A program made the translations under genes and the position numbers. DNA of 63,630 nt, the filler included, from Basidiobolus ranarum (Eukaryota): assembly GCA_040143965.1 (NCBI GenBank). It is 15 parts of 15 records of this genome, joined end to end, with 100 filler letters (N's around TTAATTAATTAA, not from the genome) between each part and the next. Parts side by side here need not be neighbours in the genome. Positions count along the whole stretch, not along the records: positions 12,782 to 16,939 come from JASJQH010002092.1; 14 more parts are not named here. One strand, 5' to 3'. Of the stretch, positions 1-35,444 are shown in pieces. Numbering within the stretch: the first letter of the stretch is position 1; each line of letters opens with the position of its first letter. The notes below the pieces were generated by a model. The model saw nothing but the letters and a program-made list of their open reading frames with translations, did not search any database and was not told where the DNA came from.

Positions 1-115
1 TTCCTTGTCCAGTCTTGTCTTGTCTTGTCTTGTGGTCTACACCCAAGTACTCTCCTGCCTTCTAGCCTCTTGTTGTTGTTCCCAGTCCTTGTCCAGTTCC
101 TTCTTGTGACACAGA

Positions 116-2213: not shown

Positions 2214-3745
2214 GGAGAGATGAAGAAATGATATTAAAGGCTATTTCTTCTTGATGAGCAGTGGACATGAGAGTCATAAATGTTGTCTCATGTGTTACAG
2301 TGCCTGATGCTAGCAGCCTTCCATCAATTACTTCTGCAAGAACTGGGCTAGATTTCTTGATTGTTGAGATAGAGTGGGATTTGACAAACACACAGACAAT
2401 AATACAGGTGGAAGCACCTGAATCAAGAAGTGCAGTTGTTTTTATTGATTTGGCATTGGGTAGCTGCAGTGTAGGGGGAGCTTTAATGATGGGTATGACT
2501 GCAAAGATTCTGATGTATGGTGCAGAAACATCTTTGAAGGTGGTTAGCCCAACTGCATGCCAATTATTGCAGCTGGGTGCTGAAGTTTTCTGATGGTTGG
2601 GGAGAGTTCTCTTCTACTTGCAAATTGTTGAACTTAAATCCAGGATTCTTTTTTGGACAGTTGCTGGCTACATCTCCAGGAGCTCCACAATAGAGTCATA
2701 AATCCTCTTATTGGCATTGTTATATCTCCTCAGGGCTATGCTTTAAAACCAAGTTCCTTCAATTTGCATTGGGTCATCTGCTTGAGCTGTTTTTGTGTTT
2801 GATAGGAGGGAGATCTGAGAGTAGTTGGAGAGGGAGAGTAGAAAGGAGTTATATTTGCTGGTTGTTGTCTTTGAAACAACCAGTTGTCACATTTAACTGC
2901 CTGATAGATAGCAGTTTTGGCAAGTTCTAGCAAATTTATTTGGTAAGGAGATCTTTGGTTCAGGAGTTGGATTTGCAGATAGTTAAATGGAGCTGGGTTC
3001 TGTATTTGAGCAAGAGAAGCACAAAGTTCTTGACTTTCTTGTTAAAGCTGAGCAATGGCTTCCATGATATTTTCCATTGGGGGGCTGGTGTAGACATAAT
3101 ACTTACTATTCTGGGGGGAAGTTTTAAAACCACATGTTTCTCTATGAATGATAATCACAATACAATGTCCAACTTTCTGTTGAAGAAAAGATTGGTGCCT
3201 TGACAAATAATATGCTGGTATGAAGATCCTTTGATTTTTATCAAATACTGTAGCTTCTTTGAGGAAACACAACTGTGAACTCAACCAGTAGTGTCATGAC
3301 AGGGATGCACTTAGAACAACTATCCAAGAGTGGAAAGTACTGTTGTCTTAGCAGGGAAGCTTGGGAAAGAGGGGTAATGAGAAGGAAGCTGACCTTAGGG
3401 GTTTTAAGGTTGGAGAACAGGAATGCAGAGAGGTCTAAAGGCAAGTGTAAGTAATCTGATCAATCTCTCAGAATAAGTAACTAGGCAAGGACTGGAAACA
3501 GCTACAAAAGTTTAGAAAGCAGGAAGGTACTTGGGTGTAGACCACAAGGCAAGACAAGAGGAGACAGGGAAGAGACTTTGGCAAGAATCTTTATTAATTG
3601 CTGGTGTTGATCAGACAGAGGTCTGATCAAGGAAAACAGGGAGTTTCAATAGATATTGTAGGATGCAACATAATATAATAAACAGGGATGATACTGTGGC
3701 AAGCTCAAGTGTAGGGGTGTTGGGGACTACAAGGACCAATACACA
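2197..3745 (-). mobile_element. Ty3/Gypsy gag-protease remnant with LTR-like 5' region
   Basis: Minus strand reads ALLDSGASTC (retropepsin active site) followed by AEVIDGRLLASGTVTHET, with a degenerate zinc knuckle (YCGAPGDVASNCPK). The 3490-3570 segment matches 1-115 and 34039-34106 in reverse. Confidence 0.8.
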
Positions 3746-3746
3746 T

Positions 3747-4163
3747 TCCTAACAAAAATAAAATTGATTTGATCTGGATTGGATCCACCCTCTGAAATAG
3801 CAAAACAGTCAGAGAACCGTCACAATGTTGCTGGCTTGCATTCTGCCAGGGATTTTGATGGTGTGATGGTGGGTTCTTGACAGTATCTTAACAGTATTCA
3901 TACATGTTAAAATATTGATCCTCAAATTTGGCATGCATTATTCAATATGCAGCAATTTTTGCAAAAATATAATTTTTGAATGGCAAATTACTGGGTTTAC
4001 TGCTGTAGGAATTCAAATTAATATGCATGCCTTTATTTAGATATTTTAGGCCTTGTATTCCAGCCATAATGAGAATCAAAAAATACAAGAATCTTGTTGT
4101 GTTTAGTCTCTACATATGCACATATTTGACTGATTAGACATAACTCAACAACATCAATATGCT
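3747..4163 (-). mobile_element. CACTA/EnSpm terminus and subterminal region
   Basis: Starts CCTAACAAAAATAAAATTGATTTGATCTGGATTGGATCC, the same end that lies downstream of the Tnp2-type transposase relics elsewhere in the window. Confidence 0.8.
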
Positions 4164-4263
4164 NNNNNNNNNNNNNNNNNNNNNNNNNNNNNNNNNNNNN
4201 NNNNNNNTTAATTAATTAANNNNNNNNNNNNNNNNNNNNNNNNNNNNNNNNNNNNNNNNNNNN
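4164..4263. other. Artificial contig spacer (first of 14)
   Basis: 44 N + TTAATTAATTAA (stops in all six frames) + 44 N. Identical spacers start at 8424, 12682, 16940, 21193, 25443, 29691, 33939, 38187, 42433, 46679, 50922, 55162 and 59398. Contig lengths fall steadily from 4163 to 4133 bp. Confidence 0.99.
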
Positions 4264-4492
4264 GACAAATCCACCTAAATTGACTAGGACCTCTACAAGC
4301 ATTACCTGAAATAAAATTTTCATAAATTCAACAAACACTTCAATAAATAATAAAAAAAGAAATAATTTGTATTTCTCTTAACCTCTAATGTAGTGATGGA
4401 ATCCCATAATTTAAAGCATCAAGAAAATCTACCATCCGTAATATTGGCAATAATAATAGTCTTTACGTGCATGCTAGGTCAGTACTAGGTCG

Positions 4493-5574
4493 TCACCTCA
4501 ATCTATGATTTAGTAAATACATGTGCCGTAGTACCCTTTTGAGGTCAATGAACGCTGTGGATAGCTTTATGATGAATGATGCTCTATAGTGCTTGCTTTT
4601 TGCAACTTTAGAATCTTTGATTTGGATGGCCATTGCTTCAACATCATCTGGATTAAGTAAATAGTGACCACGCGTTGCAGTGAGAGCCATTACTCTTACA
4701 AATAGCTTCCTCCTCTGTCTGGTTTTTGTCAACATAAACTGTGTGACTGATGGAATCTTCGGCAATATTAATGATATTACGGCGTTTCGCTAGTTTGGTA
4801 AAAGGATATTATTTGTCCTGTAATTTCTTTGACTCTATTTCGTTTTCGACTTTTTCCTTGTAGGATTAGCTTTGGTGTATTGAAGAAAGATATTTGACCA
4901 ATGCTTTGCCTTTTCAAGATGCTTACCAGTACTATAGCTTTATTTTCCACCACTAGAAGAATCTGTTTCGCTTATATCATGTTCGCCAAAGCTACAGATT
5001 TCTTCACTACCTCCTCCATGCCCAATTGATTTGTAGCTTTTTCCGACCGATCCGTTATCATTGTTCATCTTATCCCTATATTTTAGCTTAATGTAGTCAC
5101 TAACACTCTCGTACCTATTTAATTTGTGGTGTTTGCTGGTATCTATACTATTATCGTAACCTTCTTTATCCTCTTTGTGCTTATCAGAACGATAGACATC
5201 TCTCCTTCCACTTTTACCGTTACATCCTTTGTATCCATCGGATGTATGATTAGCATCAATATCACTACTGTCGCTGTCACGATAGTATTTTTCACCGCCT
5301 TCTCTCAAGTCATGTTTTTTCTCAATACTGTCTTTTGATTCTTGGTAATTATCATGATTGAGACTAACATCATTAGTCTCATGTTGTGGATGGTTATCGG
5401 ACCTATACCAGCTCCATGGTACTTATAACTAGTATCCTGGTTGCGAGTGAAAAGAGTAATTCTTATTTTGCCTTGTAATTCCTGAATATTAAATTCTAAA
5501 TCGAAAAGGTTCCCAGTTTTACACTTCAACTGGTACACATTAGGGGAGAAGGACGGGCGCTTAGCATCAACCAT
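4493..5574 (-). pseudogene. Frameshifted ORF of unknown family with an Asp/Ser/Lys-rich low-complexity middle
   Basis: Three consecutive same-strand ORF pieces (5574-5305, 5308-4940, 4765-4493). No domain recognised. Confidence 0.35.
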
Positions 5575-6136
5575 TAGGGTTACGATAACTAATTGTGGTA
5601 TAGGGTTAGCTTATCCATCTTGCATATGAATACGTTACCTTAACAGTTAAATTGTTTCCTCCTACAATTACTATTATAATAACGAATCCGAACACGAGTC
5701 GATCGAAGTAACGTTATATCATCTGCTTCAGTCAATACTAACAAAAAAGTCCAATAGTAGAAGAAGCAATCTTAGATGTGACTAATGAAGTACCGTAATA
5801 AGTGTAAGCCACCTTCCTTTGGTGACATTGTCGATTGATTTGCTTGATTTATCCATATTATATTAATTTAACTCCAAATAGAAATTTTGTTCATATCTCT
5901 GATTGATAAATTTATGCTAATCATAATTATGGTAATCATCATTGTAACCATATCAATTCTGATTATTCCCAAGAATTCCTGATAATTAAGATCAGGTTTG
6001 CAACTATTTCGACTAAAACGCTCAAATTAGAAAGATATTTTACAGTTAATCAACAGATCGGTTAACTCATTTTGCACACTTTTTACTTAATTAATCCTGT
6101 TTTGGTTATTTGTTATTTGCTATTTGCTATTTGCTC

Positions 6137-6143
6137 TATAAAA
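6137..6143 (+). promoter_or_regulatory. Candidate TATA box of the PTR transporter
   Basis: TATAAAA about 95 bp upstream of the ATG. Confidence 0.45.
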
Positions 6144-6232
6144 GAACCATCATTGGCACGAATGAAATTTAGAACAACTTGTTTATATACTTCAAGTATT
6201 TAATCCCCTTGGCTTTCAATACATAGCCCACT

Positions 6233-7810
6233 ATGAGTGAAGAAAAAAAGATCCAGCAGGACACAGAGGTAGATTATGAAGTAGCGGATCAACCCTCGCC
6301 TGAAGACATTAAACTACGCGTAGCCGGAAAAGTTCCCATTGCTGCTTGGTTTATCATCATCACTGAATTATGTGAGCGCTTTGCGTTTTACGGAGCGTCT
6401 CTCCTATTCCAACCCTACATGCTAAAGATGCTGGGATTTAGCAAAGGTACCGCCACTGCCGTAAACAGAGGCTTCCAGTTCATGGCATATTTTACTACCA
6501 TTCTCGGTGCCATCATTGCTGACAGATACCTGGGAAAATTTAAAACTATCGTCATATTCTCGCTCTTTTACATGATCGGTTTGATCATCTTAGCTCTCAG
6601 TGCCCTTCCTACTTCCCTTGATGGAAGCTTTGGAGTGATCGGCTACATCCTTGCTCTATATGCATTCATTTCCTTTGGTACTGGTGGCATCAAATCCAAT
6701 GTTTCGTCTTTTGCTGCTGAGCAAATTAAAGAAGGCCTTTTTGCCACCAAAACTCCAGGCGTATATGTTGACTCACAACTAACAGTCGAGCGAATCTTTC
6801 GATTCTTCTACTGGGCCATCAACCTTGGTGCTTTGTTGGGCCAGTTTATCTGTCCAATTGTGGCCAACAACTATGGGTCTTACCCCCTCGCTTTCTCTCT
6901 CCCCGCCATCATGTTTGTATTGGGACTGGGTATCTTCATTTCAGCCAAGAGATTCTACTATGTTAAGCCTCCCTCCGGTACCGTGCTCTCCAAGACCTAC
7001 ACATGCATTAGATACGCACTTTCCCACCGCAAAGCGCCTCTAGACAATTCCAAAACCAATGGCCCTATTGAGCATTGGTTGGATTATGCCAAAGTAGATG
7101 GATTTGAGTGGAATGATGCCTTTGTGGAGGATCTAAAGAAAACTCTACGCGCATCCTTAGTATTCTTGTTCTATCCCTTCTACTGGGCCTTGTATTACAA
7201 TATGTCGGATAACTTCATCAACATGGGTCTTACTATGCAACGTCCCTCCTTCATCAGTGGACCTGAGCAGCTTAATCTTGTCAATAGTCTGGTCTTAGTG
7301 ATTGCTATCCCTATTTTTGATACAGTTATCTTCCCAATCTTGAGAAGAATGGGATGTCGTCTTGGCCCTATCACACGCATTACTATCGGTTTCACCATTG
7401 CCACTTTAGCCTTTGTCTTTGTTACTGTTCTTCAGTCACAAGTATATAAGACAGGGCCTTACTATAATTTCACGGATTTGAGCAACTTGCCTGCAGGACA
7501 AGAGCCAGTGAATGATATTTCCATCTGGTGGCAAATCATTCCATTCATTGGGATCTCCATTTCGGAGATTTTCGCTTCGGTTACTGGACTTGAGTTTGCA
7601 TTTAGACAAGCCGCACCTGAACTTAAATCCGTGGTTACCGCTTTGTTCTTGTTCACCAATTGTGGTGGCAGTTTGATCGGATTGATCTTGGCCATTTGGA
7701 GTAACGATCCAAACTTCGTATATGTATTTGGAATTCAAACAGGACTAATGGGAGTTATGACGGGGATATTCTATTTCTTGTTCAGAAAATATGACAACAT
7801 CGAGTGCTAG
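6233..7810 (+). CDS. PTR2: POT/PTR family proton-dependent di/tripeptide transporter, intronless, 525 aa
   Basis: ELCERFAFYG (ExxERFxYY motif), GAIIADRYLGKFKTI (PTR2_1), GTGGIKSNVS, FYWAINLGAL (PTR2_2) and about 12 hydrophobic segments. Confidence 0.96.
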   Translation: MSEEKKIQQDTEVDYEVADQPSPEDIKLRVAGKVPIAAWFIIITELCERFAFYGASLLFQPYMLKMLGFSKGTATAVNRGFQFMAYFTTILGAIIADRYLGKFKTIVIFSLFYMIGLIILALSALPTSLDGSFGVIGYILALYAFISFGTGGIKSNVSSFAAEQIKEGLFATKTPGVYVDSQLTVERIFRFFYWAINLGALLGQFICPIVANNYGSYPLAFSLPAIMFVLGLGIFISAKRFYYVKPPSGTVLSKTYTCIRYALSHRKAPLDNSKTNGPIEHWLDYAKVDGFEWNDAFVEDLKKTLRASLVFLFYPFYWALYYNMSDNFINMGLTMQRPSFISGPEQLNLVNSLVLVIAIPIFDTVIFPILRRMGCRLGPITRITIGFTIATLAFVFVTVLQSQVYKTGPYYNFTDLSNLPAGQEPVNDISIWWQIIPFIGISISEIFASVTGLEFAFRQAAPELKSVVTALFLFTNCGGSLIGLILAIWSNDPNFVYVFGIQTGLMGVMTGIFYFLFRKYDNIEC

Positions 7811-7880
7811 AAATAGTGCTAGAATCCTGCTCTCGTCTCTTATTATACATAGTATTTATGCTCAACCTTCATCCACTGTA

Positions 7881-7954
7881 TAAACCATTTGATAAAACCA
7901 TTTAATAAAACCATTAAACAAAACCATTAAACAAAACCATTAAACAAAACCATT
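7881..7954. repeat. Minisatellite, about 12-13 bp unit (AAAACCATTAAAC), about 6 copies
   Basis: Seen directly in the 3' flank of the PTR gene. Confidence 0.85.
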
Positions 7955-8523
7955 CTAATTCATCTAAATCAATTTGCGAATGCTACTACTGTCAGTTCAG
8001 ATCCGTCAATGTGATTTTTACTCTTTAATATCTACTTCCATTTTTCTACATATGAATCAGCATATGTTCCATTCTAGATTCCATGGTAGATTCAGTGTAA
8101 CCAACTAATCGTGACTTACTATTATGGTCGTCATATTTGGATAGGTAACAGTTTTTCCTATTGCCATGGACAGTGTGATATTGAGATTATAATATATATA
8201 TACTGACCCATTACATTACCTGTTAGTATAATATATATACTAGCCTATCACCATCACCATCACCATCACCATCTCTATCCCTATCCCTATCGCAACACCA
8301 ACTGCTTCATTCTCATGATTATCGCGTCTGGTCATTTGTATGTGGTAATGTTCGTTATGCTACTACAAAACCTTGTGTTCAAAGAAGTCATCAGCCTGTC
8401 CCATGAGCCAAACAAAGAAAGAANNNNNNNNNNNNNNNNNNNNNNNNNNNNNNNNNNNNNNNNNNNNTTAATTAATTAANNNNNNNNNNNNNNNNNNNNN
8501 NNNNNNNNNNNNNNNNNNNNNNN

Positions 8524-8925
8524 AGCTGGAAGAATGTTGATTCAGCAATGCTAATACAATGGTGGGCTTTGATGGAGATATTGACACAAACTTGTGTTGG
8601 GTATGAGCTAAACCTTGGGTATGAAGAACTCTATCAAAGTATTTGGGAGAATATATGAAAAAAACTAGAAATTTTGAAGATGAAAAATTAGCATTCCAGT
8701 GATAAATATGTAAAATTTAAGTTACATTTTTTGCACATGTGTTGATCCACAGTGTTCTGAGATTGTAGACAATCATGTTCAACTATTTTGCAAGATCTTG
8801 AAATTTCACTCCTGAAACAAAAAAATGATTAAAATGAAATCTAACTTGATGATTTTATAATGGTAAGTGAAGAGTCAATCCAAAGAGGATTAGAAATGGG
8901 AAAGTTTTCTTAAAATAATAATCCA
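8524..8925 (+). mobile_element. Second copy of the 116-2213 repeat family
   Basis: Closely similar to 1793-2200. Confidence 0.75.
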
Positions 8926-8929
8926 TTTA

Positions 8930-9433
8930 TGATCTGATATGAACTCCAGGTTTTGGATAAAGGTACTACAAATTCTGGCGTTGCATTGGCCACTTCAGCA
9001 GGCCAAATCTGGTCTGAGCAAGCCGCAGGAAAGCTACTTTTGTTACTGTTTTGGTTTGAATCACTTTGAATGATTGTAACAGGAGAACATTGATTTTTGC
9101 ATAATCTGAGATCATTTTGCTTGACTATTTTTCATTTTCAGTAAACAAAATATTCCTGGACTTAATTAGCTTGGAAACTTTTATGTCACAGAGTCTGTAG
9201 GCCTCACTTTGAGTACAATAACCCAGAAATATACATTTCTTACTTTTTGGATCAAATTTAGATCAAATTTTGGTCATAATTTTGCATAAGCAATGCTTCC
9301 TAAGATCCTCAAATGTTTTACATCAGGTTTAACTGCAAACCAAGCTTGATATGGTATAGAGTTAGACAGGCTTCTGGTAAAAGTCCTATTCTTCAAATAT
9401 ATTGCTGTAGTAACTGAATCAGCCCAAAAGTCC
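8930..9433 (-). mobile_element. Ty1/Copia integrase C-terminal remnant
   Basis: Minus strand reads KFDPKSKKCIFLGYCTQSEAYRL and FWADSVTTAIYLKNR. Confidence 0.85.
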
Positions 9434-9949
9434 TGTTATCTATGACTGCTTGGAGTAACTTTCGACAAGTGGAGTTGTGAATAGCTTTTGTGAGATAATT
9501 ATTTGTTGTCCAGAAATACAGCAAATATTAGCAACATTGGGAGTTGTTTGTTAATATTGTTAATATATTCTTATGGCATCAACTCACATAAGCAGATCTC
9601 AGGCAGACATAGCAACTGTGCAAAGATTTTGTAATTGGATAGGAGAAACTTTATTTCAGGCTTAAAGAAGCTAGATGCAATCTATGCTGGTATTCAATAA
9701 ATTCCTTGCTGCATCTTTTGTTGAAGTTTATTGTCATTATCATTTTTGTTATCTCTATCTTTGAACACCTAACAATTTCATATATGACATCTAAGTTAGT
9801 TCACATTACTTAGTCAATTGTCACTTAACTGCAAGTTGGAACATATATTATATATACATGTGAATAATGTGAGAATTAGCAATTCCATGTTGGAAATTTC
9901 AAAATTGTCCAAATTGCCCCAATTATAGCTCATTATACTCTCACAGGTG

Positions 9950-10660
9950 TTCTGCACACAACCCCAGTGTTAGTTTTCTGTATTTCCACCAAAAATTATA
10001 AATGCTATATTTCTGGACAATAAACAATTATCTCACAAAGCTATTCACAACTTCACTTTTCTAAAGTTCCTCCAAACAGCCTATATTTTCCCAATAATGA
10101 CAGTATCCCCTTCTTTAGTGATGGTGTGCAGACCTCATAGGGCCAGGTTTTTCTGGGTAGGCTCCATGAAACTCCTGGCAAAGATCCTTAAAATTGGAAA
10201 GATTTGTGGGTGGCTCCCATGATTGATCATTTGTTAAGCATCCCTTCCAGTCCACTAAATATTGCAATTTACATTGATAAATTCTGGAATCTAGAATTTT
10301 GCTAACTTCATATTTAGAGTGTTCATCTACTAGGATTGCTGGGGGTGCATCAATGGATTGGCCCTGGAAGGTGTCTTTGGCATGTGGCTCTAAGTGAGAC
10401 ACATGGGATACATTGTGGACTTTGAAATGGGTTGGAAGTTCAAGGCCAAAGGCTACTGAATTGATTTGCTTAATAATCTTAAAAGGCCCTAGTCTTTTAT
10501 GATCAAGTTTATCACAAGGTCTAGTGGTTTTGATATTTTTCCGGAGTAGCCAAACATAATCTCCTGGCTTGAGATCTGGGCTGGGCTTTCTTTTCTTATG
10601 AGCAAAGTTCTGGTATTGGGATTGAGCAAGCTCCAACTCAGATATTAATTGTTTATAGAT
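9950..10660 (-). mobile_element. Ty3/Gypsy chromovirus 3' end: integrase C-terminus, chromodomain, PPT and LTR start
   Basis: KLDHKRLGPFKI (GPY/F), YEVSKILDSR...YLVDWKG...SWEP (chromodomain), PPT AAGAAGGGGATAC, then TGTCA at 10102. The lower boundary is approximate. Confidence 0.9.
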
Positions 10661-12681
10661 CTCTATCAAAAATAAAATTGATTTGCTCTGGATTGGATCC
10701 ACCATCCAAAATAGCAAAACTGTCTGAGGTCTGTCACAATATTGGTGGCTTGCAGTCTGCCAGGGATTTTTATGGTATAACAATGGTTTCTTGACACTAT
10801 TTTTATGGTATTCATACATGTTTAAATATTGATCCTCAAATTTGGCATCTGTTATTCAATATCCGGCAATTTTTGCAAAAAAATAAATTTTGAATGGCAA
10901 ATTACCAGGTTTACTGCTGAAGGAATTTGAATTAATATGCATGCCTTGATTTAGATATTTTAGGCTTTGTATTCCAGCGGCAATGAGAATCAAAAATACA
11001 AGAATCTCATTGTGCTTAGTCTCTACATATGCACATACTTCACTTATTAGACATCACTCAACAACATTAATATGCTTTACCCAAAAACTAATGATGAGGA
11101 AAATAGCTAAACATCTGAAATTTTGAATGGCACCAACACTTGGCAAATAGTTGGCTCTTGTTACCATTCACAATGAGAATGAGCTCTTGGATTTGGACAA
11201 ATTTCCATAGAGAATTCAGCAAATATATCCCCAACTTGCAGTCAATAAATGTCATGCCACAAGTAGATGTGTTATTGCTTGAATAGATTACCCCATGCCT
11301 AAAACAATAATAGCACATATCTTGATCTATCTCACCAAGAAGTCTGTGTTGTGGCTTTCCTAAAAATACCATTGGATTATCACACAGGCTAATTAGTCTG
11401 ATGATAGTGGTACTTACTCTTTGTCCATGGATTGGGCTTTGTTGCTGTTATTGTGCTCAAACAATGCAGAAACCCATGAGCACATTGAAAAGAGACCTTT
11501 GTTGGCAGATTACTATACTCTGGAGTCTCCTTAACCCATTTCATTACATTGATCACTGATTTTGCCATTACATTGCTAATCAGATTAGCATGCACTAATA
11601 CTGACAATTTAACATAGAGGATCATTTCACCACAGGTGTGCTCTATTGGGAACTCCCAGAATGTATAGCAAGGGCCTATAATCTCTAAGCATTATGAAAG
11701 ATGCAGCAGGGAATGTATTGAATACCAGCATAAATTCAGTCTATTTTCTTTAAACCTGTAATAAAGTTTTCATATCCAATTACAAAATCTTCACAGAGTC
11801 ACTGTATCTGCCTGAAATCTGCCAATGTGAGTTGATGTCATAAGAATATTCTAACAATATCCACAAATAATGCACAATGTTGCCAATACTTATCAGGCAG
11901 ATATCTTTTCAAAATTCCACTTGAGTAAATACAAATCCAATACTTCCAGGATTTGCATTTGAACAAACACCTAGATGAGTGGGTAGTGATGGGAGTCCTG
12001 GTAAAATAAGATGGTAGCTTGATGTTTTCAAGCATCTTCCCAATTAATTCAAACTTTGATCCTTTCTCAAATGGCTCATTCATATTAAAATTTCCACTAT
12101 ATAGCTGGGTAAGTAGTATTGGAATGTTGTTAAATAGTAAAAGCATAGTACCAGATGGGAAGCTCTGGCTCCAGCTCATCCTCTGTGGCAATATAATCTT
12201 AGGTTTATGGCTACTACCAAGTTTGGCATTAAACTGACTATTTGGGGTATTGGTATCAGTGATCATGTTGAAATCTCACCAGGCTCTTAATGGTACAATA
12301 ATGAAGTTTAGTGTTGTATTTGCATAGTAGTAATGTGTATGCCTGTTAGAGTAAACTCCATTGATTTGACAAAATCTAGAGCAAGACAGTGCATTGTGCT
12401 GGCAAAAACCTCCAAGCTTACTGATGGCAGAAGTGTCACCAATACATACAATAATATTAGCTTTAATAAAATATTTACCCATCTGAACCCCATTAGATAA
12501 CCATTCAAATTCCGCAATCAAAGGCTCCAACAAGCAATCTATAAGCACTGGTGATTTAAGTCCAGATCTGATGGAGAGTCACAAAATATTATGACTCTTA
12601 TACTGTTCGGAAGGAGGAAGATTTAAGTTCATTAAAATTATTGGCCAACAAGCCTTTCCAATGATGATGTTGTTTAGTGAG
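10661..12681 (-). mobile_element. CACTA/EnSpm (Tnp2/Transposase_21-type) transposase pseudogene with terminus
   Basis: WPIILMNLNLPPS, LEPLIAEFEWL, GDTSAISKLGGF, FKCKSWKYW and GPCYTFWEFPIE; many stops; degenerate terminus at 10661. Confidence 0.85.
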
Positions 12682-12781
12682 NNNNNNNNNNNNNNNNNNN
12701 NNNNNNNNNNNNNNNNNNNNNNNNNTTAATTAATTAANNNNNNNNNNNNNNNNNNNNNNNNNNNNNNNNNNNNNNNNNNNN

Positions 12782-13301
12782 AAGGAGGTATGGCTGGAAG
12801 CTTTCTTTGGCTAGTATTTTTCTCAGTCCGACGCCTCTATTGGGCTCACGATACTTTTCATTTCCAACCGACCAGTTACCAAGTATTTATATAGTATTTG
12901 TGGTTTTGCTTTAACACCGACACACCTACACCATCTGTGTACATCATAACTCTAAACTTCATTCACTTACTTTTTCCTTGTGGTTTCATTGCCTTTGATG
13001 TGAGGTCAATTACGGCTCCTCATACTACTATTGTCGAGGCTTTCTGTTTGTCTGACTTGTAGTTATTGAGGAGTGACAAAGGAACCTCTTTGAAAAAGCC
13101 AACATTAATGAAATCCTCCAAAAGAAACGCAGAGTCAGGTTCCAGTTCATGAGTAAAGATGTACTTCAAAAAGGAAAACGTATGTGACATAAAGGTATGA
13201 ACGTTAGCTACAAGTAACCTGAATAGTGGAACATATTATGGCTTCCACCCAATACAAGCGATTGAGCTTTTGACTGCTATAATCTTTAGAGGTGGTTCCA
13301 T
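12782..13301 (-). pseudogene. Fanzor (eukaryotic TnpB-like nuclease) relic, internally deleted and cut by the contig end
   Basis: Hand translation from ATG 13301: MEPPLKIIAVKSSIACIGWKP*YVPLFRLLVANVHTFMSHTFSFLKYIFTHEL...FFKEVPLSLL...*GAVIDLTSKAMKPQGKSK*MKFRVMMYTDGVGVSVLKQN, then after a frameshift ILGNWSVGNEKYREPNRGVGLRKILAKESFQPYLL. These match Mucorales-type Fanzor1 motifs as I recall them. Confidence 0.8.
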
Positions 13302-14551
13302 AAGGCCAAGAGAGAAAGCGAATTGACTTCTTTTTTAGTTTACGGATAGAACAGTTTGTTTAGCAAATACTAGTGAGAGTGTGGTGGGTATATAATCAAA
13401 CCAGACTCTCTACAAATTCCAACTCATCCACTTTGAGGAAACAAACACATCATTACACACGTATATACATATTGCGACTATCTCCATAAATCTGCACTTG
13501 GGGTATTCTATTCGAGTAGATAGCCAGATATTGCGTCTATGGATCACATAGATGATCCCATTAACCATAAACCTTGACTGCCGGTGATAATTTCAGAGCA
13601 CTCAAATACTTCTCAAAAAATATCGTATCTAAACTTTTATTATCCATATAACAACAAAAACTTCTATAGTATGTGCTGTAAAGGATAGTAGAGGTCAAAA
13701 TATCAACCTTTGTTGTGTTTAATTCGATTATATCGGTAGCCTTAAGCGGAATCAAACAATGATTCACTAACCTGACTGCCGGTAAATGACTGGATCAAGA
13801 ATTATATGTATACGCTGTATGCTTAAGTTGAATGAATAGTTACAAAACTCTTCTAATTCCAACAGAAAAGATAGATCTTGCAGACTTGTAGTAATGTGGC
13901 AAACAATCATTTTACTGCCTGCTTCCTAATCACATGAATACCGTTTTCCAATATTTGTTATTAGCCTGTTATCATCCATGTCACGTGGTTAGAGCATTTC
14001 GTCTGAGCACTAAAACTTGGTGCATTGATAAATCCAATCAGTAACTGTAATCAGTGGGACGAATTATGCGTGAGTTTTGAACTAACGAGTTACACCATAG
14101 ACCTCCGTGTGGAGACAACCACTCGCCAGTACAACTCACTCAGTAAATACTATGAACAGTATCATGTATGGTGATGTTAGTATGTTACGTTTGGGGCTAC
14201 TTTGAACCTGTGCTGATTCAAGTAATAATCACACATTCTGTTTCCTCTTATCCAAAATGCGTTGAACATGTGATCGAAATCTCCAATTTTAGCTGGAAAA
14301 TATCACTAGTGTGTGCTGTAATAGGGTTAGAGTATCCAGTAACAAGATGTTAAAAGTGATACATTTACTTGGGAGGGAAAAATTCAAGTTCACTCCGAGT
14401 GGAGAGATGAGCAGTCAGTAGTTCGTCACAATCTTGCACGACGATTGACACTAATATTTTTGTGGCAAAGGAGTGGGATAAAACATATTCTATGACTGAC
14501 TTACTTTATCTCTTTTAGTAAGCAGCGTTTGTTCACAAGAAAGCAAGCAAT

Positions 14552-14558
14552 TATAAAT
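14552..14558 (+). promoter_or_regulatory. Candidate TATA box of the guanine deaminase gene
   Basis: TATAAAT 44 bp upstream of ATG 14596. Confidence 0.45.
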
Positions 14559-14595
14559 AGTGGTAGTCTCACTGTGCATTATCATCAGTCCAAAT

Positions 14596-15963
14596 ATGCA
14601 TCTTTACTCACTTGCTCTTATTTCTGCCGCCTTGATTGGCAATATCTCGGCCCAAAATGTGTTCTACGGCAGCTTTGTTCATTCGGTGAATGTAACCAAT
14701 CTGGAGTATGTTACCAATGGTGTTGTTGCCGTGGACAAGACTGGAAAGATAGTTCAAGTGAAGGCCAATGCAAGCGCAGCCCAAGCTAAGCAAATAGCTG
14801 CTAATTATGGTGTGAGCCTCTTTCCTTTGGGTAACCAAAAGTTTCTCATTCCTGGATTAATTGACACTCATATTCACGCTCCACAATATGTCTTTACTGG
14901 CTCTGGTATGGATCTCCAGTTACTTGACTGGCTCAACACGTACACATTTCCTCGTGAAGCTCGCTTTAATGACACAAATTATGCTAGGGATGCCTATAGC
15001 AAGGTAGTAGATCGTTTGGTTCGCGGTGGGACTACTGCAGCCAGTTACTATGCCACCATTCACTTAGAATCCTCGAAAATATTGGCAGATATTGTGGAGA
15101 AAAAAGGCCAACGTGCACTAGTCGGAAAAGTCAACATGGATCGAAACTCGCCAGATTTTTACATCGAAAACACTGCCCAGAGCCTGAAAGATACTGAGTC
15201 TTTCATCCAATATGTCTTGGGTAAAAACAATTCCCGTGTCATACCTATAGTTACTCCTCGGTTTGTCCCATCCTGTACTACTGAACTGATGAAGGGCCTT
15301 GGTAGTCTTGCTGCCAAATATAACCTTCCAATTCAATCCCATCTCGATGAGAACTTGGACGAAATTGCTTGGGTAAAATCGCTTCACCCAGATCAACCTG
15401 ACTACACTTCTGTATACGACGTCAATGGATTGCTAACAAATCGTACCATCATGGCTCATGTTGTTCACCCAACAGATGCAGAGCGTCAATTACTCAAAAA
15501 GCGTGGTGCAGGAATATCACATTGCCCAAATTCCAATTTCAACCTTCGTAGTGGTATCGCTAAGGTTCGTCAGATGCTGACTGAAGGCCAGAAAGTTGGT
15601 CTAGGCACCGATGTTGCAGGCGGTTATGGTACCTCTATCCTTAACACCATTCGTACAGGTTATTTCGCGGCAATTGCTCGTAGCTTGGACTACCCAGGCG
15701 ACAACTACCTAAAATTGGCGGAAATTTTCTACCTTGCCACTCTTGGCGGGGTCGCTTTACTTGGAATGAGGAATACTCTTGGAAACTTTGTGGTCGGTAA
15801 GCAATTTGACGCTTTGATTGTAGATCCTCTAGCCCACGAATCTCCCATTGATCTATTCTCTCATGATGATGTAAAGACCATATTCGAGAAATTTATCAAC
15901 AATGGGGATGACCGCAACATCATTGAAGTATTTGTTGATGGAAAATCTATTCATCGCATTTAA
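14596..15963 (+). CDS. GUD1: Guanine deaminase (amidohydrolase superfamily) with an N-terminal signal-peptide-like extension, 455 aa, intronless
   Basis: PGLIDTHIHAPQY, TPRFVPSCT, QSHLDEN, HCPNSN and GLGTDVAGG. The first in-frame ATG is 14596; the ORF-track start at 14560 is GTG. Confidence 0.95.
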   Translation: MHLYSLALISAALIGNISAQNVFYGSFVHSVNVTNLEYVTNGVVAVDKTGKIVQVKANASAAQAKQIAANYGVSLFPLGNQKFLIPGLIDTHIHAPQYVFTGSGMDLQLLDWLNTYTFPREARFNDTNYARDAYSKVVDRLVRGGTTAASYYATIHLESSKILADIVEKKGQRALVGKVNMDRNSPDFYIENTAQSLKDTESFIQYVLGKNNSRVIPIVTPRFVPSCTTELMKGLGSLAAKYNLPIQSHLDENLDEIAWVKSLHPDQPDYTSVYDVNGLLTNRTIMAHVVHPTDAERQLLKKRGAGISHCPNSNFNLRSGIAKVRQMLTEGQKVGLGTDVAGGYGTSILNTIRTGYFAAIARSLDYPGDNYLKLAEIFYLATLGGVALLGMRNTLGNFVVGKQFDALIVDPLAHESPIDLFSHDDVKTIFEKFINNGDDRNIIEVFVDGKSIHRI

Positions 15964-16542
15964 GGATTTTTATTAGATATCTTCATTCTCTCAATATTGA
16001 ACCTAGCTTACATCAATTACTACAGCTTAAGTTTCAAGATAAAAGCATCAGTGAATTGGACAGGGTGCGGGTGTTAGTCCAAATGAATTTGTGCAACGGT
16101 AACTGCTTTCCTGAACCAGCAATGCATTAAAGTTATACTAATAAGCATGTGTAGTATTCTAAATAAGAATTAGTATATTGATTGATCATGTAGCACAACT
16201 GATTTCGTGGTAGAGGTATTACTAACTGAGTAATTGCTTCCTGAGTATTGACCCTCACCAGTCTAGGCTGGGGATTGGGATTGAGTTGAACTGGCTAATA
16301 AAATGAGTTTGTAGCTTTGGATAGTTGTTCATTGCACTGAGGCTCTGTACAGGGAGCAAGTAATTCTGGTAACCCTGGGTTTAGTGTTACCATGTGTTTA
16401 GTTAATGTAGCATCAAGCAGATTGTCTTTATTAGGAAAGCATCCGATTCACCGGTGTATCTTGTGAAGAGAAAAGATATAAAAACGAAGAGAGCTACTTC
16501 CAATATACCATCAACCCACCATTTCTAAACAACCTAAGCATT

Positions 16543-16939
16543 ATGAAGAGCTGGTCCATTCTTATTTGTTTAACTTTTCTTCTTCAAGCGATACTGGTGA
16601 TTGCTAGCTCTAAGGATGTCAATTATGTGCCGCGCACAAACAGACCTCAAAGGAAAGTGAAAACCTCTCCCGTACAAGTGGTAACTTCTAGCAATGGAGA
16701 CGTACAAGCGATGCTCAATCTAGTTAACCAACAACGTCAACAAAGTGGCGCTGCTCCTCTCAAACTCGATGATCACTTGGTACAGGCAGCTCAGAAGCAT
16801 ACCGATTATCAAGCTCGTGTTGGACAAATGACTCACGATGAACCTGGAAGACCTTTAAGTACTCGAGTTACCGAAACTGGATTCAACTGGAGAACTATCG
16901 GAGAAAATGTAGCCCAGGGCTTTACTAGTATCGAGATGG
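16543..16939 (+). CDS. Secreted CAP/SCP (YkwD-like) protein, 3' truncated by the contig end
   Basis: Signal peptide MKSWSILICLTFLLQAILVIAS; MLNLVNQQRQQSGAAPL, AAQKHTDYQA, MTHD and GENVAQG; TATAAAA at 16477. Confidence 0.9.
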
Positions 16940-17040
16940 NNNNNNNNNNNNNNNNNNNNNNNNNNNNNNNNNNNNNNNNNNNNTTAATTAATTAANNNNN
17001 NNNNNNNNNNNNNNNNNNNNNNNNNNNNNNNNNNNNNNNA

Positions 17041-17684
17041 ATATTTCTCGAGTACCTCAAGATGAAATCCAGTGTTTCAAAGTCACTAAAAAGCTATTAT
17101 GGTAATAATGAAGATACGAATCCTTTGGAGTTAAATGCGGGAGTTCAGCATCTGGAAGGTCTTACTGAAGTAGAGTCGGTTACTAATGAAGAAGATAATA
17201 CTACTGATGTTGTTGTCGCAGGCGTTGCTACTGTTAGTTTTGCTGATGCTGATCCCGCTATTGCTCTTTCCCAAGCTAAGCGCAATTTCAAACTATTTGT
17301 TGATCGTGTTCGTGCTGTCCTTCAAGATGAACATACTTTTTCAAAACTTAATATGGACGAGAAGCAAAGATTGGATGCCGATTGTTTAAACAGCTCTGAA
17401 GAAACTTCCAAGAAAGAGTACGAATATCGCCGTGAAATGGTAGAAGAATTGGCAGACACCATTAAGTACAGACTGGCATTACCTTTCAGAAAATTAAAGT
17501 TCTCTAGCAAAATTAATAGACTACAATTTGACCAAGAATTAGTAAACAGTTTGAAGAGGAGATTCGGAGATGCTGTTTTAGTATTAGGCGACTGATCATC
17601 TGCGATGTGAAATCTCATGAGCCAATTAGAGGAAAAGGAATGCGACGTATGCTGCAAAAAGCAGGGTTCGAGGTTCTGTTTATT
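17041..17684 (+). pseudogene. Second Fanzor relic, with an Hsp70 C-terminal-lid-like insertion
   Basis: FLEYLKMKSSVSKSLKSYYGN...[insert]...LPFRKLKFSSKINRLQFDQELVNSLKRRFGDAVLVLGD*SS, then after a 1-nt frameshift DVKSHEPIRGKGMRRMLQKAGFEVLFI. TGA at 17593 replaces the Trp of G[DN]WS. Confidence 0.82.
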
Positions 17685-18559
17685 AGACAAAAGGTAAAGG
17701 TATCCAAAGACCAAAAACACCTAAATACGTGGTTTCTGTTTCCGGAATAGCTACAAGTGAGAAGAACTTGTAGTCCTAAATATTTAAGACAACTTGTTTG
17801 TTAATAAGTTTTCTTCGGGCACAAATAGAAATCGGAGTACCTTTCGTTTATACACCATCGCGGATACTTGAGAAATGAGTTTACGTTCTATCCAAGAAGA
17901 TCCTGAGCTGAGGTGACAATTTAAAATGGTTTAGTTTCAATATTCTTGTGCGTACATTTCTTTACTCAACAAGACTGATGCATACCGTTGGAGAGTTTTT
18001 TCCATGTATAACTTGAATGAAGACTCATCTGGGTTTGAAGCCAGAGCTACACCTGCTGTTATTAAGATTAAGAAGTTGGTTGTGTTTCCCATGACAGATA
18101 TCTCAAGCTACGTATTGTCAAACAGACGGCGACACTAATCTAGCAAGAGTAAATTGTCTCCTGAAATCAGGCAAACAATTACTTTAGACTAATATGGAAA
18201 TCCTCATCAATATGTGTAACAATGTCGATTGCTCAACGAAATAAACATCGTAGTTCAGAAATATCCTTACAAAATCAATGCTTATTAATGCCAAAGAGTC
18301 ATACAATGCCCCCAAATTCATAAAACAACCCCTCGGATCTCCCCAGTACACTAGTAGGAATATAGATTGAAAGGAAAAAAGATAATCGACATTCATGAAT
18401 ATTCTTTATAATTGCAGATTTTTCGTTCTAGACTTCAACCGACCTTCCTTTACACAGTCTACAGGTGCATATTACTTTTTGTTAATACAAGACTATATAT
18501 TAACAGTTATTTGATACTAATACATAATTAAAATTCAGCTTTAAATACAGTGTACGAGA

Positions 18560-19077
18560 ATGAATAATCTGCAACGTGTTTTTACCTTTGGCTTGTTGAA
18601 GCGTTCATTATATGCTTCTCGCAATTCAATCTCCATACAAAGATACTATTCATCTCAGATCAATGTTCAGTCTGAAATAGATAAAATCACCGAACTATTT
18701 TTTGAAGCAAGAGATGAGGTTGGTAGTCTCAAATTGATGGTCTTCTGTGCATTACTACGTATTTAGAAAAGAGTCTAATGTCGCATATTTGGCAAATAGT
18801 TAGAATACGCTACCGAGTCCAAGGGATCAGTCTACTATAACGACGAGAAAGCCGCTGCCCAAGCAGTTAGTACTACTCTTTCTCTTCACCTCCTTCTGTT
18901 TCTAACCTCATGAATTGAAATGTCTAGGCTGTAACTGATTGCTTAGATGCGTTTGATTCCTTGATCGAACGCCTTGACGACACGCAGAAATCTGATGTTC
19001 AGCGTAAGATTGGCTTGAAGATTCTTGAATTACGGTCTCAGCTTGATGCATTGACCCATGAAGAACTTCACGACTAA
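18560..19077 (+). CDS. Conserved uncharacterised mitochondrial protein (similar to plant/fungal 'embryogenesis-like' proteins), 3 exons
   Basis: Exons 18560-18718, 18800-18865 and 18928-19077 join in frame across GT-AG introns. Arg/Ser-rich presequence, then ELFFEARDELEYATESKGSVYYNDE...QRKIGLKILELRSQL. Confidence 0.8.
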
Positions 19078-19240
19078 ATCCACTGAAGTGCCACTCCACC
19101 ATATATTCTAAAGATGTTTTCGATGTAAAGATCCATATTTTATCATTAAATACGATAATTTTCAATAAACCTTTGTCCAACTACCATGTATATATTATAT
19201 TTCATGAAGCTTTTATTTTAAACACAACGGCGCAGCGGAA

Positions 19241-20139
19241 TCACAACAAACTCTGACCGCTTGGGTCCAAAACTTGCGAGAAATATTCTACTGGGAGTAT
19301 GCCATCTTTACCCTCGGATAAAATGACTCCGTTGGAGGATTTGAAGAACTGTATCTTATCCTGGAGGGCTTTCTTTAAATCCACGTAAATGAAAACGGTG
19401 CAGTTTCGCCTCATCCCACTGATTACTTTGTCCTCACCAAACAACCCACTTGCAAAATGAATATGATTACGTGACATTTTTGATAAACCAGTCTGGCCTA
19501 GATATTGAAGAGAGTGAGTGTCGATGGCGAGTGGGATAGTAAATGATTGATCTTACAAATTTGTTTCCACTTATCCAGATAAGTTCCATGTATAACATTG
19601 GGATATAACGCAGGATCCGTTATCTCCTCCAATTCCAAGCTTTGTATCTATATCGTGAAGTATTCGTCAGTTAATGCGCTCTGAAGTAACAAAAAAATTA
19701 CTCCAGCTACCTTGAGACTATGGCCCTGGTTAGCGCGTATCCACCACTTGTCTTTGTCATCCTTAATTAGAGTATATCGTTTCTTGTCGTTGTTGTCTAC
19801 AACCCTTTGAACATCTTGCAAAGAGTATTTTTGGAAGTTTGGGAGTTTAAGCTGTGGTTATGCAAATATTAGACAAAACGTGTCTGTATAATTGTTGAAG
19901 ATAAACACTTGAGATTTATCTACTTGAAATAGAAAATCTGTACTAACCAAGTCCTCAAGAGAAGCGTAACCATCTTCTCTCAAATTTAAACCGACTTTCT
20001 CTGCTCCATGTCGAAGTACAAAACTCAGACTTTTGGAGAGCTTTACATCCGGAGTGTCATTTTGACGACCTCCACCTCTACCTGAAGTTTGCTTTTTCCC
20101 CTCCGGATGATTTGTGTTGTCTGCCGACTTGGTAGACAT
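19241..20139 (-). CDS. TPT1: tRNA 2'-phosphotransferase (Tpt1/KptA), about 4 exons
   Basis: LSKSLSFVLRHGA, NDKKRY, IRANQGHS, HGT, RNHIHF, SGMR and NGVILS; GT-AG introns, the first at 19947-19852. Confidence 0.95.
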
Positions 20140-20653
20140 AAAAGCTAAAAACGTATGCTAACAATGGGAAATTGGGTTCAGAGTGAACTAAACAAAGACA
20201 TATAATGTTTCTGAATAAAATTCAATATTTATTTTACATCAGAAAATTACTACGTCGAGTATCATGATTTGGAACACTCCAATTTAGTGATTTTGTATAG
20301 TATGAAGATAACGCTATCTAATTAGAAAACGCTCATAACAAAGTCACAAAAAGTGGATTTGGAGGGCTCAAAGCGTTGCATGCAATTTTAACAAGCATCA
20401 CTTAGAAATTCAAATTACTTATTATATGCTTCACAAATAATTTGTATTTACAAATGCTAGAACGAATGAAGAGTCTTTCAGAACCATGAGGATTAAGAAA
20501 TGAGTGTGGATGCTGCTTTAATTGGTTACTTTTATCACAATAGCTTCTTAAAATGATAGTATTGCCAATGAAGTTGGATATGCAAGAGGAATAGAAGAGA
20601 GAAACAATGAGTATGAAAGTGTGGAAGAACCAACGGCACAAGAGGATGGATTC

Positions 20654-21070
20654 CTATTCCTTCTTGGGAGTTTCTCTGGGGGCTCTCAATCTCCAACCCT
20701 TCAGCTTTCTAGCACGGAGAGTGACTTGCTGCTGATGGGTTTCCTTACCATAATCGTCTAAGTTGGGCTTCGCTGGATATTTGAAATCGGTGCCCATTGT
20801 TACGATGGCTTTCTTCCAATCTTTATCACGAACTCTACGTCCAATACGGGGATCCATCTTCATTTTACCCTCATAGTTGACAGTACGAACATTCACCACA
20901 TCGATATTGTACACGTGGGATAGATAGTCTTTGATGTCTAGTTTGTTGGTCTTTGGAGGTACACGGAAAGCTACTTGGTTAGGAGGAAGGTTAGAGCGCA
21001 CCACCTTGAAAATTACGCTAGGAAAGAATATTTGCTTGTGGCCGAAGAGTTTTCTGCTGATGTTTGACAT
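20654..21070 (-). CDS. MRP20: Mitochondrial ribosomal protein uL23m
   Basis: VAFRVPPKTNKLDIKDYLSHVYNIDVVNVRTVN...WKKAIV; first in-frame ATG at 21070. Confidence 0.9.
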   Translation of the reverse strand: MSNISRKLFGHKQIFFPSVIFKVVRSNLPPNQVAFRVPPKTNKLDIKDYLSHVYNIDVVNVRTVNYEGKMKMDPRIGRRVRDKDWKKAIVTMGTDFKYPAKPNLDDYGKETHQQQVTLRARKLKGWRLRAPRETPKKE

Positions 21071-21292
21071 TGTTTCTAGGGGGTGACAATAATGAGGTGT
21101 ACAATGTAAGACGTTCCTTACAGTCAGGTCTATGGAGGGCAAGTTAACAACGATGTGGAGATGAGAAGTCGAATTGACTTGAAATGATAAAANNNNNNNN
21201 NNNNNNNNNNNNNNNNNNNNNNNNNNNNNNNNNNNNTTAATTAATTAANNNNNNNNNNNNNNNNNNNNNNNNNNNNNNNNNNNNNNNNNNNN

Positions 21293-23750
21293 TTGCCCTT
21301 TGAAAACTATATTTTTGCAAAAATTGCTGGATGTTGAATATGTTAAAGTATTTGGGAGCCTGTTGGAAGTGGTTTGGAGAATTAGAGGAATTGGTGGTTT
21401 TCACTTATTGATTTATTGAGTAGAAAGTTTACATTTACAGTTTGTCAAGATGTAAACAAACTAACGTGTAGAATATGTTAAGGAAGGTCCCAGGAGCATG
21501 TGTGCAAAGTTTGGTATTTCTAGCACAAGTTTGAAAAATCTATATATCTCAGAACTTTTAAGTTGGTAAAAATACTCTAAGTAAATTCTGATTGAGAATA
21601 ATTGAAAATATCTTAGTGAATTATAAGATAACTAAGTACTAAGCTATATATCACTATATAGGTGTTTAGGCAATGCTAATTTCAACAGAATAACGCATGC
21701 CAAATTTAAGGATCAATATCTTAACATGTATGAATACAATTAAGATACTGTCAAGAGACCACCATCACACCATCAAAATCCCTGACAGAATTCAAGCCAA
21801 CAATATTGTGATGGTTCTCTGAAGTTTTGCTATTTTGGAGGGTGGATCCAATCCGGATCAAATCAATTTTATTTTTGTTAGGGCAATAGTTTTAAATAAC
21901 TTAAATCTTCCTCCTTCCAAACGGTATAAGAGTCATATTTATTTTGATACAATCCATCATGTTGGGACCTAGTTCACCAGTGCCTATAGATAGCTTCTTG
22001 GAGCCTTTGATTGATGAATTTGAATGGTTATCTAATGTGGTTCAGATGGGGGATATTTTACTAAAGCTAATATCATCATATCTATTGGTGGTGCTCCTGC
22101 CATCAGTAAACTTGGAGGTTTTATGGGTGCAATGCACTATCTTCCTGTAGATTTTGTCAAATCAATGGAGGTTACTCTATCAGGCATATTTATTGCTACT
22201 ATCCAAGTACAAAACTAAACTTCAAATTTTTACCATGAAGAGCCCAGTCAAACTTTAACATGATTGCTAATATCAGCTCACCAAATATTCAGTCTAACAT
22301 CACACTGGGTATTAGCCATAAGCCTAATATCATATTGCTAAAGGGGATCAGCTGGAGCCAGAGCTATCTATTAGGCACTATTCACTTACTATTCAACAAC
22401 ATTCCATTACTACTTACTCAGCTATATAGAAAAAACTTTAACATGACGGAGTCATTCAAGATAGGATTAAAGTTTGAATCAACTGGGAAAATGCTTGAAA
22501 ATGTCAAGATACCATCATATTTTACCAGAACTCCCATCAACATCCACTCATCTAGGCATTTATTCAAATGCAAAGACTGGAAGTTTTGGATATGTACATA
22601 TTCAAGTGGAATCTTGAAAAGATATCTGCCTAATAAGTATTGGCAACATTGGGAGTTGTTTGTGGATGTTGTTAATATAATCTAATGGCATCAACTCACA
22701 TTGGCAGATCTCTGGCAGATACAGCAACTGTGTGAAGATTGTGTAATTGGATATGAAAAACTTTATTACAGGTTTAAAGACAATAGACTGAATTCATGCT
22801 GTTATTCAATATATTTCCTGCTGCATCTTTAACAATGCTTAGTGATTATAGGCCCTTGCTATACATTCTGGGAGTTCACAATAGAGTGCACCTGCAGTGA
22901 AATGATGCTCCATGTGAAATTGTCAGTATTACATATGCTAATCTGATTAACAATGTATCAGCAAAATCCACAATGGATGTAGTGTAATGGGTTGAGGAGA
23001 CTCCAGAGTATATAAACCTTCAAACAAAGGGCTCTTTTAATGTGCTCATGGGTTTTGGCATTGTTTGAGCATACTAACAGCAACAAAACCCAATTCATGA
23101 ACACAGAGTAAGTACCTCTATAATTTGGACTAAATTGTTTATGTGATAATCTGATGGTATTTCTAAGAAAGCTGGAAGGCAGACTTCTTTGTGAGATATA
23201 TCAAGAGAAGCAGTATTATTGTTTTAGCCATGGGGTAATCTATTTAAGAAATGACACATCCACTTGTAGTAGGACATTTGTGGACTGCAAGTTGGCGATA
23301 TTTTGGCTGAATTCTTTCCAGAAACTTGCCAAAATCCAAGAGCCTATTCTGATTGTGAATAGTAACAAGAGTCAGCTATTTGCCAAGTGTCAGTGCAATT
23401 CAAAATTTCATATGTTTAACAATTTTTCCACCATTAGTTTGCTGCTAAAGTATATTGCTGTTGTTGAGTTATGTCTGATGAGTCAAGTATGTACATATGT
23501 AGAGACTAAACACAACAAGATTCTTGTATTTTATGCTTCTCATTATGGCTGGAATACAAAGCCTAAAAGATCTAAATAAAGGCATACATATTAATTCAAA
23601 TTCCTACAACAGTAAACCCAGTAATTTGCCATTCAATAATTAGATTTTTGTAAAAATTGCTGGAAATTAAATAATGCATACCAAATGTGAGGATCAATAT
23701 GTTAACATGTATGAATACAATTAAAATACCATCAAAAGGCCACCAATATA
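21293..23750 (+). mobile_element. CACTA/EnSpm relics: a terminus at 21883 followed by a second transposase pseudogene
   Basis: Same family as 10661-12681 (LNNLNLPPS, FLEPLIDEFEWL, FKCKDWKFW). Confidence 0.85.
21341..21687 (-). mobile_element. Copia solo LTR (family A) inserted in CACTA sequence
   Basis: TGTT...AACA ends with a perfect 5-bp TSD GAATA on both sides; the empty site is visible in the copy near 30400. Confidence 0.92.
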
Positions 23751-24829: not shown

Positions 24830-25442
24830 ATCTCACCATCAAAATCCCTGGCAGAATGCAAGCCACCAATATTGAGATGGTTCTCTGACAGTTTTGCAAT
24901 CCAGAGGGGTGGATCCAATCCAGATCAAAGTGATTTTATTTTTGTTAGGGCACAGAAGACTGTAAGGTCTGAACTGGATAAATATTTCAGCTAGCTGGTG
25001 AACCTGTAAGCTGGATTAGTAAGAAACCACAAATTGTTTCATCAGCAACTACATATGCAAAATATATGGCAAGCTCTATGGCTGTTCAAGAAGCTATATG
25101 GCTAAGAAGTCTGGTTCAGGAATTAGAATCCCTAACAAAAATAAAATCAATTTGATCTGGATTGGATCCACCCTCTGAAATAGCAAAACCATCAGAGAAC
25201 TGTCCCAATATTGCTGGCTTGCATTCTGCCAGGAATCTTAATGGTGTGATGGCAGTTTCTTGACAGTATCTTAACGGTATTCATACATGTTGAAATATTG
25301 ATCCTCAAGTTTGGCATGCGTAATTCAATAACCAGCAATTTTTGCAAAAATATAATTTTTGAATGGCAAATTACTGGGTTTACTGCTGTAGGAATTTGAA
25401 TTAATATGCATGCCTTTATTTAGATATTTTAGGCTTTGTATT
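24830..25442. mobile_element. Two back-to-back CACTA termini (ending 24950, starting 25130) around a short Copia RNase H fragment
   Basis: ...TTTTGTTAGGG and CCCTAACAAAA...; the sequence between reads VSWISKKPQIVSSATTYAKYMASSMAVQEAIWLRSLVQEL. Confidence 0.8.
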
Positions 25443-33020: not shown

Positions 33021-33024
33021 CATA

Positions 33025-35433: not shown

Positions 35434-35444
35434 AAAAGGGATGA

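Follow-up and report, generated by a model that had tools for sequence, protein, structure and literature searches.

On the minus strand of positions 12782-13301 of the window (the whole 63,630-nucleotide stretch of Basidiobolus ranarum DNA analyzed here, from assembly GCA_040143965.1) lies what is very probably a dead pseudogene fragment of a Parasitella/Mucorales-type Fanzor1 gene, left by an inserted copy that later decayed. Intact Fanzor1 proteins are TnpB-derived endonucleases that are guided by omega-RNA and borne on mobile elements, and their RuvC catalytic triad consists of an Asp in RuvC-I, a Glu in RuvC-II, and an Asp or Asn in RuvC-III. The fragment, referred to below as relic A, retains three coding blocks of such a gene, and a second and divergent Fanzor1 relic (relic B) was found on the next contig of the window.

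Contigs and artificial linkers in the window

The window was split at its Ns into 15 short, unplaced contigs, which follow each other in decreasing order of length from 4163 down to 4133 bases. Between them, the pattern TTAATTAATTAA occurs 14 times (n = 14) at a spacing of ~4.25 kb, against a chance expectation of 0.03 (pattern count over the whole window), and each copy is bordered by N runs (4164-4263, 8424-8523, 12682-12781, 16940-17039, and onward). Since these linkers are artificial, gene neighborhood across any of them carries no meaning, and apparent neighborhoods in the window should be viewed with caution as products of contig concatenation. Relic A is located on contig 12782-16939, whose first base after the linker is position 12782.

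Three blocks of relic A

The minus-strand frame of 12884-13334, read through with X at the stops, gave a translation (P0001) that carries blocks 1 and 2 of the relic. P0001 was used as the query for longer proteins and matched three of them, 462-626 aa in length (E 1.7e-40 to 1.3e-34), only one of which is named, an uncharacterized protein of Gilbertella persicaria (P0004, 626 aa). The homologs P0002, P0003 (593 aa, JGI), and P0004 were then compared with the window by tblastn, and the relic was also aligned by phmmer to the chain of Parasitella parasitica Fanzor1 (PpFz1, PDB 9cf0). The resulting features are as follows:

12682-12781, no strand: artificial contig linker (N run, TTAATTAATTAA, N run), non-genomic, with an unrelated contig beyond it
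12782-12886, minus strand: block 3, the 35 codons preceding the RuvC-II Glu motif (phmmer, 9cf0 chain 1129-1163, E 5.8e-6)
12887-12899, minus strand: deletion 2 junction, where the frame shifts (frame comparison; the gap lies between 9cf0 chain positions 852 and 1129)
12900-13028, minus strand: block 2, just upstream of RuvC-I (tblastn, homolog residues 303-345, 59-67% identity, E 1e-12 to 5e-11)
13029-13031, minus strand: deletion 1 junction, consisting of one ATA codon (alignment A1, gap columns 105-315; tblastn coordinates agree)
13032-13301, minus strand: block 1, the N-terminal 90 codons (tblastn with P0002-P0004, residues 1-90, 57-66% identity, E 1e-29 to 7e-25)

The three blocks lie on a single strand and are collinear with the protein order, and their match to the homologs is far beyond chance. 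An earlier reading of this DNA, made from the sequence alone, had described three ordered minus-strand blocks within 12782-13301, and these were recovered by tblastn with E values of 1e-29, 1e-12, and 3e-5. Block 1 starts at a conserved Met (ATG at 13301-13299), is identical to P0156 at 74 of 90 positions (82%), and aligns to 9cf0 chain 512-591 with P0001 as the query; with the same query, block 2 aligns to about 811-852 of the chain, and 37 of its 43 residues are identical to those of P0164 as counted from the alignment. Block 3 is read in a separate minus-strand frame from blocks 1 and 2 (12886-12782), and its segment 12874-12782 corresponds to P0004 residues 499-529 with 52% identity (tblastn, E 3.5e-5). 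When the whole window was searched by tblastn with permissive settings, relic A and a second locus at 17482-17690 were the only loci detected, the remaining matches having E values of 0.6 or above.

The contig end at 12782 falls two codons short of the homologs' RuvC-II Glu motif, in agreement with the earlier placement of block 3 just before the catalytic Glu. Because that contig end directly follows an artificial linker, the 3' limit of the relic is not biological, and everything 3' of block 3 is absent as a result of the assembly limit, not of a deletion or of a property of the element. The extent proposed previously for the relic is thus correct in its block positions, while its lower limit marks a contig end and not an element boundary.

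Relationship to characterized Fanzor1 proteins

In phmmer comparison with PpFz1, significant E values were obtained with the relic A translation (1.2e-16 with P0001 and 5.8e-6 with block 3), and the relic is by this measure homologous to experimentally validated Fanzor1 proteins. The full-length homolog P0004 matched PpFz1 with an E value of 4.5e-140, the Spizellomyces punctatus Fanzor1 (8gkh) with 9.5e-39, and the Guillardia theta Fanzor1 (9cer) with 8.4e-7. The assignment to the Mucorales Fanzor1 type in the sequence-only reading was borne out. All three blocks of relic A align in the same order to PpFz1 (PDB 9cf0-9cf3), within the MBP fusion chain of those entries.

In P0003 and P0004, an Asp motif follows block 2, and a Glu motif and then a CxxC motif come right after block 3; P0004 also contains a late Asp motif. 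By the TnpB/Fanzor architecture we take these to be RuvC-I, RuvC-II, and the zinc finger, all retained in both proteins, and the late Asp motif of P0004 to be RuvC-III. The split RuvC triad is not found in relic A, where RuvC-I falls inside deletion 2 and the RuvC-II Glu and RuvC-III lie off the contig, and its ORF is interrupted by stop codons (13238-13236, 13022-13020, and 12965-12963) and by the frameshift at 12887-12899. PpFz1 is intact in comparison, whereas relic A is without RuvC-I and carries the stops and the frameshift; the counterparts of the RuvC-II, TNB, RuvC-III, and omega-RNA parts of PpFz1 are off the contig. In Fanzor1 the zinc-finger TNB domain sits between RuvC-II and RuvC-III, and the omega-RNA is encoded at or past the 3' end of the gene, beside the right end of the element. 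Judged from its sequence, relic A is a pseudogene from the PpFz1-type (Parasitella/Mucorales) Fanzor1 clade, i.e., a descendant and not a functional member of it.

The homology search that had been suggested as a check was positive with phmmer against 9cf0, but the Pfam scan of the relic A read-through translation and of block 3 assigned no family at an E limit of 10. The blank is explained by the shortness or the divergence of the pieces, which puts them out of reach of the TnpB/Cas12f models, and by the absence of the informative C-terminal domain. P0004 itself gave a weak Pfam hit to Cas12f1-like_TNB (E 0.0043) that is under the curated cut-off, and a precomputed tag, PF26935.1, is attached to the homolog matches although our local Pfam scan did not return it.

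PpFz1, the nearest relative with a solved structure, is an active omega-RNA-guided endonuclease for which cryo-EM structures, in vitro cleavage, and a 5'-ATN TAM are described in the original report (Cell 2024, PMC11423790). Since PpFz1 itself is characterized to this degree, the suggestion that the genome may hold an uncharacterized nuclease/omega-RNA system overstates the case.

Internal deletions, stop codons, and frameshift

Relic A has lost the greater part of its REC region, together with the catalytic Asp motif of RuvC-I, through two internal deletions, as is seen both in the tblastn coordinates and in the alignment gaps and as the sequence-only reading had proposed. Deletion 1 took away ~212 codons between homolog residues 90 and 303 (against PpFz1, ~220 residues are lacking between blocks 1 and 2) and deletion 2 took away ~153 codons relative to P0004 or ~276 relative to PpFz1 (chain 853-1128), sizes that were measured against relatives 57-66% identical to the relic, because the closest public relatives (68-82%) are all short fragments and a full-length reference of the same lineage is therefore lacking. 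Deletion 1 preserved the reading frame, which fits chance (one in three) and also fits a shortened derivative that was once coding. Deletion 2 spans the RuvC-I Asp motif, which in the homologs occupies columns 401-415 of alignment A1, inside the gap. The frame shifts after the last codon of block 2 (12902-12900), and block 3 resumes at 12886, possibly at 12898.

There are three in-frame stops. The first, TAA at 13238-13236 in block 1, is preceded by 21 codons and stands where the homologs have Q or R. The second, TGA at 13022-13020 in block 2, is aligned with W in all four homologs that cover the column, and the parenthesized W given for this codon in the earlier reading was correct. The third, TGA at 12965-12963, also in block 2, is aligned with R, S, D, or Q. 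A TAA at 12889-12887 is probably a fourth stop, in the frame of block 3. Introns in place of the stops were considered and ruled out, as the alignments cross the stops without a change of frame and the residues to either side are conserved; the stops lie within aligned columns and are therefore mutations, not intron boundaries. With three in-frame stops, a likely fourth, and one frameshift, the gene is dead.

A second Fanzor1 relic

The second locus detected by tblastn belongs to a divergent Fanzor1 copy at the edge of the next contig:

17041-17690, plus strand: relic B, beginning at the contig edge and extending from ~residue 460 as far as the block that precedes the RuvC-II Glu motif

Relic B was matched by tblastn with E values of 5e-7 and 3e-6 (P0002-P0004 as queries) and by phmmer to 9cf0 chain 963-985 and 1044-1132 (E 1.4e-6). 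Its frame shifts near 17595-17604; similarity continues as far as the block ahead of the Glu motif and disappears beyond it, and the C-terminal motifs were not found. Between two conserved anchors it has ~130 codons, compared to ~12 in P0003, and this insertion sits at the position of the FRI domain of PpFz1, with weak similarity inside the insertion. According to the authors of the PpFz1 work, the cyclophilin-binding FRI domain was found in Parasitella and Rhizopus only (PMC11423790). If the insertion of relic B is an FRI domain, its range would extend beyond these two genera.

Over the ~30 residues that both relics cover, comparison of the tblastn alignments shows strong differences between them, which indicates different lineages and not two ends of one copy. 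Relic A stands at contig end 12782 and relic B likewise begins at a contig end (17041), so that Fanzor copies evidently break this assembly. The presence of a second Fanzor1 relic means that there were once several copies in this genome, and it adds weight to the earlier proposal, plausible in itself, that a full-length Fanzor family exists or existed here, though no intact copy was seen in the window. At least two Fanzor1 lineages are, or once were, present in the genome, and the full assembly may contain an intact copy.

Relatives in public databases

In an exhaustive HMMER search with P0004, 1907 cluster representatives were matched with E values of 0.001 or below, of which 194 had values of 1e-30 or below, and among the 150 matches listed of the 1907 many are 200-400 aa in length; in public data the Fanzor1 family is large, and its members are often fragments. 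A search for proteins of a length similar to that of relic A gave 15 matches, the nearest of which are 68-82% identical over block 1 and are all fragments of 83-247 aa (P0155-P0164). The two named proteins nearest to relic A, P0156 and P0164, come from records labeled Basidiobolus ranarum, and the remaining named relatives are from Mucorales (Gilbertella, Rhizopus, Spinellus, and Parasitella). The family may have spread horizontally or may be shared through common ancestry, or the records may be mislabeled; any of these could account for the naming pattern. Identity of relic A to P0003, P0004, P0156, and P0164 amounts to 57-82% over block 1 and up to 37/43 over block 2, and the conserved start MEPPLKI is common to all of them.

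Origin of relic A

The history that best accounts for these observations, and the one we consider very probable, begins with a Fanzor1-bearing element that would have inserted ~1.25 kb upstream of an amidohydrolase gene and in the opposite orientation. Two internal deletions took out the bulk of the REC region along with the RuvC-I Asp motif, and three nonsense changes, one frameshift, and probably a fourth stop closed the frame. Under neutral decay the locus would make no nuclease and serve no present function, and relic A may be read as a record of past multi-copy Fanzor1 activity in this genome.

The sequence-only reading had likened the deletions to those of a non-autonomous derivative. 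Relic A would then belong to an internally deleted Fanzor family that kept both ends and the 3' omega-RNA and was moved, or used in trans, by an intact Fanzor1. Non-autonomous derivatives of DNA transposons are typically internally deleted with the 5' part of the element retained, which counts in favor of such a family, as do the in-frame deletion 1 and the presence of more than one Fanzor1 copy in the genome. In S. punctatus, moreover, protein-less ghost loci with working omega-RNAs are described in one study (PMC10432273). Nevertheless, we regard this explanation as unlikely, since neither copies that share a deletion nor terminal inverted repeats were observed within the 63 kb of genome (15 contigs) at hand. 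With blastn at E up to 1e-5, contig 12782-16939 matched none of the other 14 contigs, and it contains no inverted repeats of at least 16 nt; the deletion junctions of relic A were present in none of the 10 short homologs compared (of 15 found), and the internal gap of P0164 is a different one. Alignment of flanks, which had been proposed as a way to define the ends of the element, gave only chance-level matches between the flanks of relic A (13302-14556) and relic B (17691-21192), the best being 13 nt long (E 0.05), so that no transposon ends of relic A and no common termini were found by inverted-repeat search of the contig or by flank comparison. There were 0 Rfam matches in 12782-21192, and the four stops (the last a probable one) and the frameshift suit neutral decay.

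We think it quite improbable that relic A is a conserved, internally deleted Fanzor1 derivative whose unseen 3' end encodes a working omega-RNA used in trans by an intact Fanzor1. If this were true, the S. punctatus ghost loci would have an equivalent of Mucorales type, yet one with ORF pieces kept.

The decayed insertion proposed above also has to be weighed against an assembly artifact, in which a short-read assembler collapsed or jumped between repeated Fanzor pieces near the contig end and so created the internal deletions. Both relics are at contig ends and the contigs are short (about 4.2 kb), as such an error would have it, but the blocks bear nonsense mutations of their own and are distinct from every public copy, as expected for an old degenerate copy, the flank 13302-16939 has no second copy in the window, and no junction repeat able to drive a collapse is present; an artifact is accordingly very unlikely. 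Hardly any credence can be given to an exapted short gene, still coding, or a regulatory RNA of Fanzor origin: the start codon is conserved and similarity to the 5' leader implied by the N-terminal extension of P0155 seems, by our own reading of a weak match, to extend ~30 nt upstream, but the first stop comes after 21 codons and is followed by further stops and the frameshift, neither Pfam nor Rfam gave a match, and conservation of the truncated form was not found among the 15 matches of the similar-length protein search.

Comparison with Spizellomyces punctatus loci

In S. punctatus, Saito et al. 2023 (PMC10432273) report 42 loci that carry an Fz gene, full-length in only 19 of them, so that partial genes are common; they also report 134 ghost (Spu-1) loci that encode no protein but have working omega-RNAs. 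The partial and ghost loci described there resemble relic A in being decayed or shortened Fanzor1 derivatives scattered in a fungal genome. A ghost locus is defined by inverted repeats of 30 nt and an omega-RNA, both conserved, and is entirely without ORF, whereas relic A retains three ORF pieces. Partial Fanzor copies are already on record in that paper, and relic A is a real but ordinary pseudogene of a characterized family. It is a further decayed member of a transposon-borne nuclease family that occurs widely in fungi and whose structure and biochemistry have been characterized.

Genes and repeats around relic A

Upstream of the start of relic A there is no ORF of note in 13302-14556, and two ORFs follow on the same contig:

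14557-15963, plus strand: intact, single-exon amidohydrolase gene (Pfam Amidohydro_1, E 6.6e-61)
16435-16939, plus strand: secreted-protein-like ORF cut by the contig end (ORF call)

The amidohydrolase, ~1.25 kb from relic A and in the opposite orientation, is by its appearance a candidate guanine deaminase.

On the other side of the linker, contig 8524-12681 contains pieces of a Tnp2-type transposase-like ORF (12279-12578, minus strand; Pfam Transposase_21, E 0.0011, under the cut-off). A linkage of relic A to the Tnp2-like pieces (12279-12681) was considered and ruled out, as these belong to another contig across an artificial linker. Contig 8524-12681 is 83% identical to contig 21293-25442 over 1860 nt and shares shorter repeats with four other contigs, and it resembles a transposon present in several copies, with no relation to relic A.

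Mutual repeats of 70-96% identity are shared by 10 of the 15 contigs, namely 1-4163, 8524-12681, 21293-25442, 29791-33938, and 34039-38186 in the first part of the window and 42533-46678, 46779-50921, 51022-55161, 55262-59397, and 59498-63630 in the rest. Such repeats are not shared by contigs 4264-8423, 25543-29690, and 38287-42432 or by the two that carry the Fanzor relics, 12782-16939 and 17040-21192.
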